Origin: Octopus vulgaris
Lineage: Eukaryota
Reading direction: 5' to 3'
Length of the DNA: 64,000 bases
NCBI GenBank assembly: GCA_951406725.2
Contig: OX597819.1
Location: forward strand, 44,206,001 to 44,270,000
The position numbers and the translations under genes are program-made. Shown here one piece after another: positions 13,910 to 58,245 of this stretch. The number at the start of each line of letters is the position of its first letter. Position 1 is the stretch's first letter. The notes under the pieces are model-generated. The model saw only the letters and a program-made list of their open reading frames with translations, was not told the DNA's origin and did no database searches.

Positions 13910-14362
13910 CTTTTCTACTCTAGGCACAAGGCCCGAAATTTTAGGGGAAGGGACAGTCGATTTGATCGGCGTCAGTTCGCATCTGGTACTTAAGTTATCG
14001 ACTCCGAAAGGATGAAAGGCAAAATCGACCTCGGCAGAATTTGAATTCAGAACGTAAAGACAGATGAAATATCACTAAGCATTTCGCCCGGCGCGCTAAC
14101 GTTTCTGCCAGCTCACCGTCTTTAGAGAGAGAGAAGAGAAAGAGAAATTCTTTTCTACTCTAGGCACAAAGCCCGAAATTTTTGGGGGAGGGGGCCAGTC
14201 GGTTAGATCGACTCCAGTACGCAACTAGTACTTAATTTATCGACTCCGAAAGGAAGAAAGGCAAAGTCGACCACGGTGGAATTTGAACTCAGAACGTAAA
14301 GACACGAAATACCAGTAAACATTTGGCCCGGCGCGCTAACGATTCTACCAGCTCGCCGCCTT
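13910..14362 (-). mobile_element. Two tandem family C SINEs (tRNA-like head + Nin-domain-like core)
   Basis: Each copy reads, in reverse complement, 'ggc.g.gagctgg.agaa.cgttagcgcgccggg...ttctga.ttcaaatt...gcctttc.tcctttcggagtcgataa.ttaagtac.ag'. Confidence 0.8.
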
Positions 14363-16980
14363 CTGTTTTTTTTTTCATATCAGACGTCTCGTGTACGAAA
14401 CGTTGTAGCAAAAATCAGTGCTGGCTGTACTTTCTTAAAAATAGCTGTAGAGATAACTTTAACAAGTGATGTAATAGCAGTGCTAACACAGTAGAACATG
14501 GTATTGACTTATAAAAACATTTAATATACGTTATAGCGTATTATGGTTGCATAACGAAATACCATGTACCTACAAATCATCAATATCGAAGACTACAGAT
14601 CCAAGCAATCACGGGAACTGTAAAAATCTGTAATACTTTCCAGAAGTTCATCATTCAATTATATATGAGCATGTCTAGATATGCAAGTATATGCATGAGA
14701 AGACATACATAAGACAAAACTTACAAATCTGCACGTATACATACATACATACATACATACATACATACATACATACGTACATGCATGCATACATACATAC
14801 ATACATACATACATACATACATACATACATACATACGTACAAAAATACGCTGCTGTTGATGTTGAAATTCCAGCGAAGCAGCCTTGGATCTAGGTTAGAA
14901 ACCGGCTTTTTCTCTATTGGCAAGAAATCTTGAAGTAAAACTGAATAATGGCATACATATAAACCTACATACACGCATGCATACATACATACATACATAC
15001 ATACATACATACATACATACATACATACATACAGACAGACAGACAGACAGAGAGACAGACATACAGACGGACAGACATGCATACGAGCATACATACATGA
15101 ATGCATACACACACACATTTGTATACACATACAAATCACATACGTAGTTGTACAGAATCATTTGCATTTACAGGCATAGATGAACGTACATCTAGTTTCT
15201 CTGGCAGCGAACAGACAGATATGTTACCAATAAGGAGACACTGCCCTGCGGTATATTTAGCTAATGGAATTGATCTCTCATCCGGTTTAACTCCATCACG
15301 TGGCTCTTAGTTGCTTCATAGGAAGACCCTACTCTACGGCAAGTCTTCGGGCCAGGTCTTCTATCTGACGATTTCGTTCTAAACCTCACTTGATTTTAAG
15401 TCGCTTTAAAGGTAGTGATAATAAAGAAAAGTCATGAAAAATATAGGAATGCATACTTTACTATAGCAGTTGTATAGGCCACTGGTTAAGACATTTGCTT
15501 TGCTACCATTAGATTCCGGTTTCGATCCCACGGCGTGGTAAATTAAGTAAATGAGATTTCTTTTCTATAGATTTGTATGATGGGCTAAAATGGAAGGATA
15601 TTTGCCGGCTGTTTCCAATAGTTATCTCGACCTAGTAGAGACATTCTTATTGAGTTTTGGTGTTAGATATGGGGGACACCATAATGGTAGTAGTGGTGAT
15701 GGTGGTCGTAGTGGTGGTGGCAATAGTAGAGATGGTCGTAGTATTTGCGGAGTTGGTGGTGGCGTTAATTTTGGTGTTGGTGGTATTCATTGGTGATTTT
15801 ATTAGCGTTAGCAGCGGTGGTGCAGAGTTTGGTAATGTGTGTGTGTGTGTGTGTGGGGGGGGGGGGGTGATGGAATCGGTGTTGGCATTGGTGGTGGTTG
15901 TGGTGGTAGTGATGATGATGATGGTAGTCAAATTAGCGGGAAAACTCAAGGGAACGATGGTAGTATTTATGTTTAGCATTGATAGTAATCGTTTCTGTAT
16001 TAAGATAGTGGCTATGATGTGTACGCATGTGTCTATGTACGTATGTGTGCGCGCGTGTGTGTGTGTGTGTGCGCGTGTGTGTGCGCGCGTGATAGTCGTT
16101 CATGAGACGCGCATCTAAATCACCCACGACGTTGCGGGGGGTCTTCAGATTACAAGCAGACAGACAAACTAATATAAGCAAACGCCCGATAATTCTACTA
16201 GAAAATTCTAATAGGCCTTGCTTAATGAATAACAGGAACACAAGAAGGAAATGAGCAGCGATTTTTACTCATAAAAAATGACCAACACAGACCCTCCCTG
16301 CAACATCCACGCACGCAGTGAAGTGAGCGATCATGGCCGAGCTCAATACAAAGACCACCACTACGACTACCACCAGATTTACAACTAAGTTAACACTAAA
16401 TGTGTCCCTGGAATGTTCCAATTTAGATTAGTACGATTATTCATTGGTATCCAAATGCAATTAAGTAAGCATAGTCAATGGAATATTCTGTTTGTTCTAT
16501 TGCACATTTCCATGCTGCACTACAGACTAGATTATATAGCCTTTTCATACAGAGCCGTCTTAATTTCGTTGTTAATTACATACACCAGGCTTAATTACAT
16601 CAAACATAAATGCGACGGCATGGCAGTGATAGTATTGCTGCAAATTCCACGCTGCTCTTGGAGGTCTCTTGTGAAATCGTTTCGTTTTCGTTGCAAATTC
16701 TTTTCTTCTCTTCCTCTATATATCTCTCTATATCTCTATATCTGTTTGTATATTTCGATGCATACATACTCATATACATACATGCCAACACACACATACA
16801 CACACACACACACACACGCACATACATAATGTTTGCAAGTTTATATTTATACGTGTGTATATATAAATATATATGTATGTATATATATATATATATGTAT
16901 GTATATACAATTTACCGATACGAATATATATATGCATTATACATACATATATAGATATGTGTGTGCATGTGTTATCACAG

Positions 16981-19604: not shown

Positions 19605-20199
19605 ATTTTCCAAATCCCAATATTTCTGGCCTTGTTTCTCTGTGAAAAATTAATGTAATTTATTTATCATTATAGTTTTAATGAGCTGAATTAATTCGGT
19701 AATTCTTAGAAGTAACTTAGTTCAAATACAGTTTCGAAAAGGCTTACCAATGTACACTTCTCAATTTACATTTTTGCACATAATTTGCAAGTTATAACTC
19801 CTTGTCTGAAAGAGTATTCATATATTTTTTTTAAACGCACGAATTGTATTTATTTAGTTGGGATTACTCCTAATTTGCAATATATTACAAACCTCATACA
19901 GCATCAGTTTGAAAGGCCTTGATCTAGTATATCTAATAGTTTGATACTTCGAATTGGCGCAGTTCACTTTTATAACCAGTAGTTATCCATCTTCTTTGAT
20001 TTCGTGACGCCTCGGAAATCAGATGTAAAAAATATATGGCACAAGTCGCTTGTAACGTTAAAAAAAAGAAACTATTCTAATGGTAAAGATTTAAAAAATG
20101 TGCCCCAGCCCCTGGATAAAATCGATAAAAGAATAACTCATGTGCATATCATGTTTTATTAACCATATTTGTGTTTAACAAGGTTATGAACTATCATAA

Positions 20200-20700
20200 G
20201 ACGGCTAGCTGACAGAAACGTTAGCACGCCGGGCGAAATGCTTAGCGGTATTTCGTCTGCCGCTACGTTCTGAGTTCAAATTCGGCCGATGAAAAGCAAA
20301 GTCGACCTCGGCGGAATTTGAACTCACAACGTAACGCAGACGAAATACCGCTAAGCATTTCGCCCGGCGTGCTAACGTTTCTGCCAGCTCGCCGCCTTTA
20401 TACTTACTTAAACAAGTACCAGTTACGCACTGGTGTCGATGTAATCAACTTAATCCGTTTGTCTGTCCTTGTTTATTACCCCTGTGTTTAGCCCCTTGTG
20501 GGTAGTAAAGAAATAGGTATTTCGTCTACCGTTACGTTCTGAGTTCAAATTCCGCCGAGGTCGACTTTGCCTTTCATCTTTTCGGGGTCGATAAATTAAA
20601 TACCAGTTACGCAGTGGAGTTGATGTAATCGACTTAATCCCTTTGTCTGTCCTTGTTTTCCCCCTCTATGTTTAGCCCCTTGTTGGCAATAAAGACATAA
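20200..20700. mobile_element. Family C SINE cluster including an inverted pair
   Basis: 20203-20289 (+) and ~20308-20396 (-) are near-perfect complements. A further + copy lies at ~20517-20700. Confidence 0.85.
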
Positions 20701-31174: not shown

Positions 31175-31193
31175 TAATGATAATAATTATATA

Positions 31194-32240
31194 AGGCGAC
31201 GAGTTGGCAGAATCGTTAGCACGCCGAGAAAAGTACTTAGCGACATTTTGTCTGTCTACGTTCTGAGTTCAAATTCTGCCGAGGTCAACTTTACTTCTCA
31301 TCTTTTGTGGTCGATAAAATAAGTACCAGTTGAGCACTAGGATCAATATAATCGCCTTACCTCTCCCCCGAAATTGCTGGCCTTAAGCCAAAATTTGAAA
31401 ACCAACAATAAGAGTTCTAATTATGGCTCAAAGCCAGCTGTTTTTTAATGGAAGTGGGTATTAACTTATCATCGACTCTCGTACTTGATTGGTACTTTAT
31501 ATTATTGACCTGGGAAAATGAAAAGCAACGTCAAATTCTGCCGAAGTCATCGCTTTTCATCCTTCCAGAATCGATACGATATAGCACCAATCATGCACTA
31601 GGTTTGATAGTAATGAGTTAACCCATTCCCCTCATAACTGCTGGCCTTGTGCCAAAATAAGAAAGATTCATTATTGTTATTAATTGTGTTTAAGGCGGCA
31701 AGCTGGCAGAATCGTTAGCGCGCTGGATGAAATGCTTAGCGGTACGTTCTGAGTTCAAATTCCACCGAGGTCGACTTTACCTTTCATCTTCTCGGAGTCG
31801 ATAAAATAAGTACCATTTAAACACTGGGGTCTATGTAATCGACTCATCCCCTACCCCAAAATTGCTGCCCTTGTGGCAAAATTTGAAACTATTATTAACT
31901 GTGCTTTCACCGGAGAAAATGCTAAGCGGCATTTCGTTTGTCTTTACGTTCAAATTCCACCGAATTCGACTTTGCCATTCATCCTTTCGCGGTCGATAAA
32001 ATAAGTAACAGTTGAGCACTGGGTTCCATTTGAACGACTAGCCACATACTTGAAATTGCTGGACTTATGCCAGAATTTTAAACCATTATTAATAGCGTTT
32101 CTGCGAGGCAAAATGTTTAGCTGCATTTCGTCTGTCTTTATGTTCTGAGTTCAAATTCCACCGAGGTCTACTTTGCCTTTCATCTTTTCGGGGTCGATAG
32201 AATTAGTACCAGTTTAAAACTGGGGTTGCTATAATCGACA
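31194..32240 (+). mobile_element. Array of ~5 family C SINE copies and fragments
   Basis: Repeated 'gttc(tgagttc)aaattc..ccga' and 'gtcgata' + 'agta.ca' units at ~31.2, 31.5, 31.7, 31.9 and 32.1 kb. Confidence 0.8.
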
Positions 32241-32596
32241 ATCTCTTCACATCCACTATAGTTGAAAAGATTATTAATAACTAGCTGGCTCAGTGCCGTC
32301 AGAAATGACGGCTAATTGTTGTATTTTATATATAAATATGGATTGTTATTCAAATTAATACACTTGTCAATGTTATCTAGTGGTTGTCTATTGAGATGTG
32401 ACATCGATCATTCTTTGATACCGAAAGAAAGCTGGTTTAAACTTACAAACATTCACACACTTCCCTTGTACACGAACGCACATACACACACATATACTCT
32501 CACAGAGTTGAAACGCTGTTTGATTTTTCTTTTCAGCGTTGAATTTTCCCCATCCTACTTCCATTGCACACACACACACGCACGCACATACACACA

Positions 32597-33162: not shown

Positions 33163-33349
33163 ATTATTATAGTAGATGCTTTCTGCTTAACGCATAATGC
33201 CAACAAGTTTGAGGATCAGTCGAAACTATTGACCCCAGTACTACATTGGTGTTTAATTCATTGACCCCAGAATAGTGAAAGGAAAACTTGACCCCGTATG
33301 TATTTGAACTCTGAATGTAAAGACCCCAAAATTATGATGATAATAATAA

Positions 33350-33550
33350 TGGTTTCTGATTTAGGCACAAGATCAGCGACTATGGTGGTTGGGAGGTGCG
33401 GTAGTTGATCATGTTGGCTTCAGTGTTGACTGGTAATTATTTTCCCGACCCTGAAATGATGAAATGCAAAGGCGAACTTAGCGGAATTTGAACTCAGAAC
33501 GTAAAGAAATACCGCTAAGCAATTTGTCGGGTGTGCTAACGATTCTACCA
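33350..33550 (-). mobile_element. Family C SINE (decayed)
   Basis: 'gcggaatttgaactcagaacgtaaag...gctaacgattctaccag', as in 14150-14362. Confidence 0.7.
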
Positions 33551-33698
33551 GAAAATACACAAACTGTCTATAGGAACTAGAACAATATCAAGATGTCCAA
33601 AATTCTTCAAAATTGCCTAAATACATAATCTATTTATAAAACTATTAAAGGAATGGATGAGAACGTGAGAGAGCGCGAAAAACAAGAGAGGGAGAGAT

Positions 33699-34561: not shown

Positions 34562-34980
34562 CATGGAACAAAAATGGCGTACAGGACAATAAAATATTCG
34601 GACAGATGGACTATACAAATCGGACAGGTAAACGAACAATTAGAAGGACAGGCAAAAAAAAAAAAAATAAAAGATGTGTCATTCTTCGTCTTCTTTCCTC
34701 AGTCAAGTTACCAGAAGTCCTTACTGTTTCGGGCAGTTAAACTTGAGACAGTTCGATCAGGTTGCACCCCAAAATGTCTAAGCTAAGAGCATTAGATTAT
34801 TTTTTGTAAGAAAGCTAACGAATGTGTATGGCGACAGAAACAAAAAACGGTGAACATGGTGCAACACTACAAATACAAACAACAAGAATATAACAACAAG
34901 TGTCTTCCGACTGAGAACGAATCAAATTGGACTGGGGTGTATGAAGTGAAAGCCTAAGTGCAGGAACATAGGAGACGGAC
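34562..34980 (-). mobile_element. Short non-coding element in (TA)n (family D) carrying a rearranged hammerhead-like motif
   Basis: About 420 bp bounded by (TA)n on both sides, with a related truncated copy at 58065-58245. Confidence 0.6.
34696..34752 (-). ncRNA. Putative non-circularly permuted hammerhead ribozyme
   Basis: Reverse complement ACTGT-C-TCAAGTT-taactgccc-GAA-ACAGT-aaggacttctggt-AACTTGA-CTGAGGA. It shows a GUC site, a perfect 7-bp stem I, CUGANGA, and GAAA plus a 5-bp stem III partner inside loop I. No clear stem II. Confidence 0.5.
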
Positions 34981-34992
34981 ATATATATAAAT

Positions 34993-35173: not shown

Positions 35174-35208
35174 GTATGACGTTTCGAGCGGAGCTCTTCG
35201 TCGGAAAT
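35174..35208 (-). ncRNA. Minimal hammerhead variant in the Neptune pLTR (U4C core, weak stem I)
   Basis: Reverse complement attt-CCGACGA-a-GAGC(tcc)GCTC-GAAA-cg-TC-atac. Stem II is identical to that of 5201-5235. Confidence 0.6.
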
Positions 35209-41080: not shown

Positions 41081-41244
41081 CGCGTGTGTGTGTGTGAGTT
41101 TGTGTGTATGTATGCATATATGCCCGTATATATAGTTCTTGAACACGCCGAAACTATGCGAATTCTAGTCTACATGGCTGATGAGAGGAATTTTTTTCTA
41201 ACGTTTTCTGTTAATCGTTTCCGTGTTCTACTTCTATTTTTCTT

Positions 41245-41765
41245 ACATACATACATACATACATACATACACGCATACATACATACATACATACATACAT
41301 ACACACATAAATACATACATACACACATACATACATACATACACACACACATACATACATACATACATACATACATACATACATACATACATACATACAT
41401 ACATACATACATACATACATACACGCATACATACATACATACATACATACATACATACATACATACACGCATACACACATACATACATACATACATACAT
41501 ACATGCACACATACATACATGCATACATACATGCACACATACATACATACATGCACACATACATACATACATACACACATACATACATACATACACACAT
41601 ACACACATACATACATACATACATACATACATACATGCACACATACATACATACATACATACATACATACATGCACACATACATACATACATACATACAC
41701 ACATACATACATGCATACATACATACATACATACATGCACACATACATACATACATGCACACACA

Positions 41766-50160: not shown

Positions 50161-51047
50161 GTCGTGTAAATACACATACAAAAACAGAAACACGCACATG
50201 CACATATATATGTTGTAAATATCGTGATGAGATGCTGTTTATTTCCTGTACATAAATCTAATAATCAAACACAGAAAGTCTTATAGAGTATCTTATATCA
50301 ATATATGGTGGCTATAGATATTTCCGTACGACGATTTTATGCTAGTATCAAGAAATTTAGATACAGCGTTAGCGTATAGTCATTGTCCTTTGAACGTAGT
50401 TCATGGAATGTAAGACAAAATGACACTTGATTTCACTAAGCTTTTATACCGCTCAAAAAATGAAGTAGCAGATATTTCCCCCTGTCGCTGCAAGTTGAAG
50501 TTAGTTCCTTTGTTTTGCTTCTCTGTTCATTGCGTTGACAGTTTAGGATATGAAGTTTCTCAGTTAAACTTATATTGCATGGTGTTTGGCAGATTACTGA
50601 AAAGATTGGTACTAACAACGATAGATCATGCAGAATCACCATTATTTTTCTAATTGTAATTCAAGATAGAAGTAATGCATTTTTTTGTGTGACGAGTGTG
50701 AAAGGAATTTAGTATTTATAAGACTTTACCTTTCATCCTTTCGGAGTCGGTAATATAAGTAACAGTCGAGTACTGGGGTTGATGTATTGGATTATCCCCC
50801 CGCTCCAAAATTGCACGCCTTGTGCCTATAGTAGAAAGGATTATTATGGCTATTATATGGTAAAACGTGATTTGAGGGAAATTTAGCTTCACTTACCAGT
50901 AAGTTGAGTGACTGCGCTGCAGTTCTCTCCTTGGTACCTGGACAAATCTGCGTGTATTAGGTTTAATCTATGACGGTGACGAAACCCAATGTTAAAGTCT
51001 AGGGTTATAATTTGCATTATTTAGCAATTATTTAATTGTTTGTATAA

Positions 51048-57102: not shown

Positions 57103-58064
57103 TCATCACCACCACCACCACCACCACCACGAACATCAACAACACAACATCAAGAATGACATTAGCATTTAACAGTAATGACAATGAATATGATAACTGC
57201 AATAATCGTTAGACTTGAAGCTAATTCCTGAATGTAAAGATACTTGAGATTGCGGTGATCCGATTGTTTTGGCGAGATTAACTACTGTATAATTTTTAAG
57301 CTATTTTATACATTTTTGCCAAATTGCCATTGTTTAAGATGACGATAATATCAAAAACTTCAGTTCAACGATAACTGAGTTGTATATTTTTTATATTAGT
57401 AATATCATATTATCTATGTGATCAGTAGGAAAATGATATCGAATTATATTAAATAAGAGACACTTTGCAGTGTTACAAATAATGTTGAAGTTGAAAGGTT
57501 TGAAAGACAGCACTATTACTGTCTTCCAGAGAGAGAGAGAGTAACCGGTTATAATTACTAAGTTACTGCAAATCTGTGCATTAATTATTTGAAAAGCTGC
57601 TTTTTAGGTTTCTGTGAAAAATACCATATTCTAACATAGACATTCAATCAGGTGAACTTAAAATTCGAATTCGTTTCTAAATGCCGTCAAGAAAGTAAAT
57701 TCCTAACGTACGTGATAACAAGCATAATAGTTTTTCTTTATAATATATAGTTCAGTCTCTGACTTGGCGGGCTCCACTTTCAAAAATACACATTCCGGCA
57801 TCCTTTTGTCACTGGTACCGACATTAATGCCTTGAATACTGTCCACACAAAATTACATTACAACTGCAATCCCGCATTTGTCCTAATATATCTGAATACG
57901 TTCTTTAATCATTTAATAATTCCCCCCACCACGAATATGGCTTTATGCTTGTTATCTTTTACCATCTAATATACATATATATGAATGTATATACATATAC
58001 ATGTATATAAATATATCCATGCATCTCACCACTTTTCATCTTTCTGACTCCCCTCCCTTGATAT

Positions 58065-58245
58065 ATATAAAATACAAAATGGGACAAGAACGCAAAACAC
58101 CGAAACATCCAGACAGCTAGGTGATACAAAAAAGGGACAACAAAACATCCAGATAGACGATACAAAGAAAACAAGGACGGGTCATCGAAGCCCTTTATCA
58201 TCAGTTAAGCATCAGATTATCTTCGCAATTTCGGCTGATTATTGT
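58065..58245 (-). mobile_element. Truncated family D element (partial rearranged hammerhead-like motif)
   Basis: Reverse complement atcag-cc-GAAA-ttgcgaagataat-ctgat-gcttaa-CTGATGA. It has the same 24-nt GAAA-to-CUGANGA spacing as the 34.7 kb copy, and TA-rich flanks. Confidence 0.55.

Follow-up and report, generated by a model that had tools for sequence, protein, structure and literature searches.

A predicted split-core hammerhead motif of S-G-C order in Penelope-like repeats of Octopus vulgaris

Hammerhead ribozymes of type SGC (HRIMA-1 and its variants) have been validated in vitro and are, in the main text that describes them, known from metatranscriptomes alone and from no known organism (Eckert 2023, PMC10085705). 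According to the same text the CUGANGA segment never lies more than 1–2 nt from its stems and is assumed to be uninterruptible, and a further non-circularly permuted type, CSG, was published there from just two metagenomic sequences (PMC10085705). Naiads, a group of Penelope-like elements (PLEs) that insert into (TA)n targets, were reported to be without canonical hammerheads and sometimes to carry a 'half core' (Craig et al. 2021, PMC8557442); in this account Naiad_Ovul is marked 'HHR_half_core'. Non-LTR retrozymes have been proposed as non-autonomous PLE derivatives (PMC7229834; bioRxiv 10.64898/2026.07.22.740005).

The window analysed here is the whole 64-kb stretch of Octopus vulgaris DNA, taken from a microsatellite-rich genome of 2.8 Gb in 227 contigs. 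A sequence-only reading had proposed a non-circularly permuted, pseudoknotted hammerhead on its minus strand, and all the pieces lie where that reading put them: ACUGU-C at 34752-34747, UCAAGUU at 34746-34740, GAA-ACAGU at 34730-34723, AACUUGA at 34709-34703 and CUGAGGA at 34702-34696. In hammerhead terms these belong to block S (stem III strand and GUC triplet, 34747..34752), with the predicted cut between 34747 and 34746, the stem I strand 3′ of the cut that runs into a 5-nt linker toward stem II (34740..34746), block G (stem II 3′ strand, GAAA and stem III strand, 34723..34735) and block C (stem I strand and CUGAGGA, 34696..34709). The order is thus S-G-C and not the cyclic C-G-S without a core pseudoknot, so that none of types I, II and III applies, as had been stated. 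The motif was also expected to be missed by standard models, and an Rfam scan of the window at gathering threshold indeed gave 0 matches. The strand order does not by itself make a new class, as had been supposed: S-G-C is the type SGC of Eckert 2023 (PMC10085705). A report of rearranged hammerheads in Xenopus, mentioned in the same reading, has 0 occurrences in the main text of PMC10085705, and a literature search yielded nothing relevant.

A descriptor of the core with stems I and III gave 100 matches in 1.99 Mb of fetched DNA, which is enriched for the family and contains overlapping loci, and 0 in the same DNA reversed. When the window was combined with 40 samples of 10 kb from fixed positions (464 kb in all), four S-G-C matches were obtained, one of which looks spurious, with 0 in the reversed set and 0 in each of three shuffles. 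In view of these controls the motif is not a chance occurrence. It lies in a non-coding, interspersed or tandem repeat copy of subfamily A (34563..34983, minus strand), which is 5′-truncated and ∼17% diverged and whose 3′ end abuts (TA)n. A copy of subfamily B (58062..58242, minus strand) is 5′-truncated ∼6 nt past the predicted cut site, and consequently block S and the strands upstream of it are missing there; its distance from GAAA to CUGANGA (58198-58239) is 24 nt, equal to that of the 34.7 kb motif, as the sequence-only reading had noted. A truncated copy of an older family, E (41140..41245, plus strand), has the same G-then-C order and spacing, the upstream half of this family being poorly resolved. 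Type I-like hammerheads of other repeat families with CUGANGA, stem II and GAAA were also seen in the window, on the plus strand at 5205, 5543 and 47410 and on the minus strand at 9865, 26662, 52537 and near 35205; the one at 5543 alone passed a strict descriptor, and Rfam reported none of them. Another multi-copy family is present as tandem or inverted pieces at 31177-32248, 13909-14378, 20195-20699, 33344-33551 and 50722-50846.

The motif-bearing repeat is non-coding, (TA)n-targeted and made of head-to-tail units of 730–860 bp, and it comprises at least nine subfamilies. Extrapolation from 10 copies in 800 kb of fixed-position samples gives ∼35,000 copies, with a wide error. The subfamily A remnant at 34.7 kb (420 bp) returned 2594 first-look candidates, of which 40 were scored; these span query positions 8-428 at 79–83% identity. 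The 58.2 kb copy, which belongs to subfamily B, returned 1734 first-look candidates as query. Copies of subfamily A share a common 3′ end at (TA)n and vary in their 5′ truncation, and the longest continue into the 3′ end of a preceding unit, with 732 bp from core to core (two loci) and a short tail after the unit end. At three loci the start of the subfamily A unit shows a donor-like AG|GTATGT after a tail of 30–40 bp, as expected for the 5′ UTR intron of a PLE. Sampling and one pattern search added subfamilies C, D1, D2, D3, D4, A2 and E as well as a single-locus variant. A further subfamily, seen on the plus strand of one locus, differs in the letters of stems I and III, and its 6-bp stem III is followed by a kink-turn-like loop. 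The search with other stem III letters gave 168 matches vs 94 in the control; many of the 30 loci returned are chance matches, and the useful ones are point-mutated copies of further subfamilies. In subfamily C, all 40 matches listed are identical over 181 bp with a complete core, and its arrays reach four tandem units of ∼845–860 bp each. Judged by its sequences subfamily C is the youngest, and very young.

The Penelope-like context suggested earlier is supported. The lack of an ORF, the common 3′ end, the 5′ truncation, the head-to-tail units, the short tail and the microsatellite target are all features of non-autonomous PLE derivatives. Like non-LTR retrozymes as they are described in PMC7229834 and bioRxiv 10.64898/2026.07.22.740005, the octopus repeat forms non-coding tandem units with one hammerhead each; those sources describe type I hammerheads in units of ∼300 bp, whereas the putative octopus ribozyme is permuted and split in its core and sits in units of 730–860 bp.

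Base pairing in the predicted helices is preserved across the subfamilies. Stem III is ACUGU/ACAGU in A and GCAAU/AUUGC in B, i.e. three double changes in five pairs. This agrees with the earlier prediction that full-length GAAAUUGC copies, which proved to be subfamily B, carry GCAAU-H before stem I; the sequence found is GCAAU-C. Over the majorities of A, B, C, D2, D3 and N (a family described below), pairing holds in 95 of 96 helix cells of stems III, I and II, with two or more Watson–Crick types at 14 of 16 helix positions, as expected from compensatory change. The two invariant pairs are A15.1-U16.1 and G10.1-C11.1, as in hammerheads. When partner strands were swapped between families a mean of 67.8 cells paired vs the 95 observed; a value of 95 came up in 0.135% of 20,000 random permutations, as often as the identity permutation alone would produce it. 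The core (CUGANGA, GAAA and NUH) is identical in the six majorities and intact in the window copy. In total 14 core and kink-turn letters are identical, yet N shares just 2–6 of 24 helix letters with the other families. The majorities were built on 25 of 29 loci for A, 26 of 29 for B, 5 of 5 for C, 16 of 20 for D2, 17 of 25 for D3 and 20 of 20 for N; the pair count excludes A2, D1 and D4 (where the pattern forced position 15.2) and E, whose majority was poor. D2 and D3 were discovered via the core pattern, and the start of stem II was optimised per family. Since the subfamilies are related, the changes are not independent. The statistics, though not the pattern itself, are weakened by this kinship and by the way in which D2 and D3 were discovered.

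The sequence-only reading had found no stem II, but this stem exists: its partner strand lies upstream of block S, at 34763-34767 in the window copy. When an insert of 0–2 nt is allowed after CUGANGA, as by Eckert 2023, the downstream strand offers a stem II of just 0–2 bp in every family, and the intact block C of type SGC, with a stem II strand within 0–2 nt of CUGANGA, was not found. The strand just upstream of block S forms a stem II of 5–6 bp in A, B, C, D2, D3 and N; its letters differ per subfamily, and G10.1-C11.1 is always kept. We compared the two strands with equal search windows in 70 distinct copies that had been chosen on core, stem I and stem III with stem II disregarded. Full 5/5 pairing was present with the upstream strand in 45 of them and with the downstream strand in nine, and pairing of at least 4/5 in 62 and 36, respectively, the latter after an insert of 4–5 nt.

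Instead, pairing and folding assign the strand after CUGANGA to a helix with a strand still further upstream, P0 (5′ strand 34808..34824; 3′ strand 34680..34695, directly after A9; all minus strand). The gap between P0 and stem II is filled by a hairpin, P0b (34770..34806), in which different sequences pair in A, B, C, D2 and D3, and 0–2 unpaired nt remain at each step. From the upstream stem II strand (10.1–10.5, 34763..34767), P0 and P0b it is predicted that a four-way junction interrupts the chain between A9 and G10.1. P0b would be the second extra arm of this junction, which could also stack the other way. Unconstrained folding recovered P0 together with P0b in B, C and D2, and in C, D2 and D3 it recovered stem II with the upstream strand; P0 and P0b are weak in N. 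The idea that a downstream stretch 'CGAAUGAC...GUC' supplies another G/S block, for a type I ribozyme, was rejected, since position 15.1 would be U; the stretch can be explained by the P0 strand. The predicted break would adjoin the conserved metal site of the hammerhead core. No precedent for a break at A9/G10.1 was found in the literature. A description of the split-core architecture was likewise not found there, neither in literature searches nor in passages of PMC3088659, PMC10162972, PMC6765202 and PMC13725137; Weinberg et al. 2015 (PMC4509812), cited for hammerhead variants with additional helices, and the supplements of Eckert 2023 may bear on its novelty.

The ends of the structure appear to be tied by a further helix, P4, which joins the strand 3′ of stem II to the strand 5′ of stem I in a register that differs in C and D2; the linker between stems I and II is 2–5 nt. 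P4 is the counterpart of the 'interaction' helix between stems I and II in type SGC. In the window copy its 5′ strand is at 34755..34762, followed by the non-bulged GA of an internal loop (34753..34754), and the 3-nt bulge with GA and then the P4 3′ strand are at 34710..34722, all on the minus strand. Kink-turns follow the pattern of a 3-nt bulge and then tandem G-A/A-G pairs between two helices. In five of six families (A, B, D2, D3 and N) the stem III extension has a 3-nt bulge and GA opposite GA before P4, so that the loop between stem III and P4 fits the sequence pattern of a kink-turn. The exception is subfamily C, with a 7-bp stem III, TA in place of GA, a 4-nt bulge and no kink-turn pattern. 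In D2, D3 and N the bulged strand resembles box C (RUGAUGA), and a U-U pair comes first after the G-A tandem, which is also seen in box C/D kink-turns that depend on protein.

With regard to the window copy, its core and stems I and III are intact, one mismatch is present in each of stem II and P4, and the P0 3′ strand carries three changes. The 7-bp stem I described before does exist in this copy, but its seventh pair is private to it, the family having 6 bp. Folding of the copy is no better than that of shuffles (z −0.28). An active master most likely left it behind as a neutral relic.

Compared with type SGC as presented in PMC10085705, the octopus repeat shares the S-G-C order, three mutually crossing stems, a short linker between stems I and II, a tying helix and a full core. 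It differs in that the stem II strand lies 5′ of block S and A9 enters the closing helix, where the SGC strand directly follows CUGANGA, and in that a kink-turn-like loop links stem III to this tying helix, the terms kink and k-turn having 0 mentions in the main text of PMC10085705. Furthermore, unlike the metatranscriptome finds reported there, the octopus version is a high-copy animal repeat. The second relative is type CSG. By eye, the 3′ ends of the nematode elements Naiad-1, -2 and -3_Nbra in the PMC8557442 supplement contain clean type CSG ribozymes whose stems I, II and III covary and in which a helix ties stems I and II. The octopus repeat has the same cyclic order C-S-G and the same tying helix, but the published CSG form has an intact block C and its chain is opened in the stem III extension. 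For the motif, the most fitting description in our view is a split-core circular permutation within the SGC/CSG class, carried by Penelope-like repeats.

In agreement with a Naiad connection, the 3′ UTRs of Naiad_Ovul and Naiad_Obim, as they are given in the published consensi, read as the same four-strand design, and exact matches to motifs of these consensi occur in the genome. The central 22-nt motif of the Naiad design, here family N, has 254 exact matches in the octopus genome and 0 in the control. Its helices hold in the majority of 20 loci, and in four of seven loci the motif is 950–1290 nt past the end of the Naiad ORF. RT-like ORF remnants precede family N, their RVT_1 match (E 2e-4) being below cutoff, and Pfam gave no RT match on two short Naiad ORF fragments. 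Diverged N-type variants were additionally seen after Naiad-like RT remnants at two loci. The split-core hammerhead is likely the ribozyme that Naiads were reported to lack. Other Naiads differ by eye in the consensi of the same source: Naiad_Esco shows the S-G-C order but no kink-turn, and nothing could be parsed in Naiad_Adux, Naiad_Omin and Naiad-1_Skow.

Subfamilies A–D resemble the Naiads of PMC8557442 in their (TA)n targets, 5′ truncation, partial tandems and tail of 30–40 bp. They differ from those described there in being non-coding and not alignable to Naiad DNA, and no real DNA similarity was found between A–D and the Naiad loci. A linked PLE ORF, which the sequence-only reading had suggested looking for, was found for the same architecture in Naiad copies but not for subfamily A, where the upstream DNA is the previous tandem unit and holds no ORF. 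None was present in subfamilies A–D, the longest ATG frames being 65–70 aa, and the ORF with an N-terminal GIY-YIG and RT is absent from them; a search of family E for a linked ORF gave just two matches and no clear link. The young, identical copies of subfamily C imply that a recently active retrotransposon supplies the enzymes. The Naiad RT fragments found are mostly broken, whereas C is young, and among 7 + 20 loci no autonomous partner that shares its 3′ end with A–D was found. One young autonomous PLE family was found, with ∼96–99% identical copies of 4.6 kb, RVT_1 (E 5e-8) plus GIY-YIG at the C terminus (E 0.0015). It was rejected as the partner of A–D, as there is no shared 3′ end and no sign of a split-core ribozyme. 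This young PLE has a 753-aa RT and GIY-YIG frame, a separate upstream frame of 340–380 aa without a Pfam match and inverted, 5′-truncated copies, and by eye its short pseudo-LTR holds a minimal type I hammerhead with a U3-A8 core variant.

Cleavage of the transcript might be expected to leave traces in the 5′ ends of genomic copies. Such ends were mapped in 90 of the 249 exact matches to a subfamily B motif located 121 nt past the predicted cut; these are the first copies listed, two tandem partners being skipped. Twenty of the 90 begin at 0..+15 after the predicted cut and three at −16..−1, where 3.3–4.7 are expected (Poisson P 5e-10 to 1e-7 for the excess at 0..+15), and the best 16-nt window, a length picked after the data were seen, begins exactly at the cut. 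Three of the 20 ends start at 0 and most lie a few nt past the cut; ends are mildly raised out to +45, and 50 of the 90 copies extend past the site. The 58.2 kb copy itself starts at ∼+6. This pile-up suggests a footprint of the predicted cleavage. Owing to the post-hoc window, the few ends at 0 and the copies that read through, it is suggestive and not proof.

In our judgement the motif is quite probably a degenerate copy of a conserved hammerhead-type RNA whose blocks run S-G-C and whose stem II strand lies upstream. This RNA likely folds as a monomer and likely cleaves, after NUH, the transcript of a retroelement that is non-autonomous and probably of Penelope/Naiad type. Three other explanations have to be weighed against it. 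The RNA could be an ordinary type SGC ribozyme in which the strand 3′ of CUGANGA forms stem II after the insert of 4–5 nt and the upstream pairing belongs to an inactive or alternative fold, possibly a switch. The downstream strand does keep some complementarity, as seen from the 36 of 70 copies that reach at least 4/5, and 4–5 bp are possible in B, C, D4 and N. This pairing shrinks to just 1–2 bp in A, D1, D2 and D3, B copies with AAAAC lose it with an unchanged G block, and in folding the strand is taken by P0, while the upstream strand covaries in all six families; we regard such an ordinary stem II as very unlikely. A pair of adjacent tandem units might instead form a domain-swapped dimer in the manner of minimal PLE hammerheads, an alternative raised by the sequence-only reading. 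The head-to-tail arrays would suit this, and a dimeric mode of action has been proposed for PLE hammerheads (PMC4209133). The dimers described there rescue a short palindromic stem III, however, and stem III here has 5–7 non-palindromic bp plus an extension. A single 72-nt unit holds all the strands, with helices of full length and short fixed linkers, and the units are 730–860 nt apart; the need for a dimer is not supported, the monomeric fold is favoured, and we give the swapped form hardly any credence.

The hammerhead-descended structure might also be conserved as a non-cutting cis-element, such as a loading or pausing signal for the RT, with the 5′ ends piling up because the polymerase stalls at the knot. 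The read-through copies, the smear of ends over +0..+15 with its mild rise to +45 and the interruption of the core at a sensitive place would all be in line with this. Against it, families that share 2–6 of 24 helix letters all retain every catalytic letter, with H17 (C or A) and N7 left free, and the pile-up ends abruptly at the cut bond even though there is more structure upstream. A purely structural role is improbable in our view.

For the favoured cleaving monomer, we propose a normal hammerhead active site in three dimensions, in which stem II would stack on G12-A9 though G10.1 is not joined to A9. The gap between A9 and G10.1 would be held by the four-way junction of core, P0, P0b and stem II. 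The internal loop, acting as a kink-turn, may fold back the extension of stem III and so allow P4 to tie the ends of stems I and II, in place of the usual contact of loops I and II. Tandem transcripts would be cut once per unit, ∼140–185 nt before the 3′ end of the element, and target-primed reverse transcription into (TA)n may use the cut RNA as one template, resulting in copies that begin at the cut. The design may have originated from a type CSG ribozyme, like those of nematode Naiads, by circular permutation via tandem duplication.

On balance, we lean towards a natural monomeric hammerhead that cuts in an animal and has a seventh connectivity outside the six-permutation scheme, its chain entering and leaving through a four-way junction inside the core at A9/G10.1 and its fold closed by a kink-turn, possibly in need of a host protein of the 15.5K/L7Ae type. 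It would belong to a wider non-circularly permuted set, with CSG forms in nematodes and split-core SGC forms in cephalopods, which would be the overlooked Naiad ribozymes. If this is true, CUGANGA could be separated from its stem II strand after all, against what had been assumed in print. A core that depends on a four-way junction and a kink-turn would also be a natural scaffold for ligand- or protein-switched cleavage. Non-circularly permuted hammerheads would move from unassigned environmental RNA to tens of thousands of copies in an animal genome, and there would be a direct answer to why Naiads, which are dominant in many invertebrate genomes, seem to be without the hammerhead of other Penelope-like elements.
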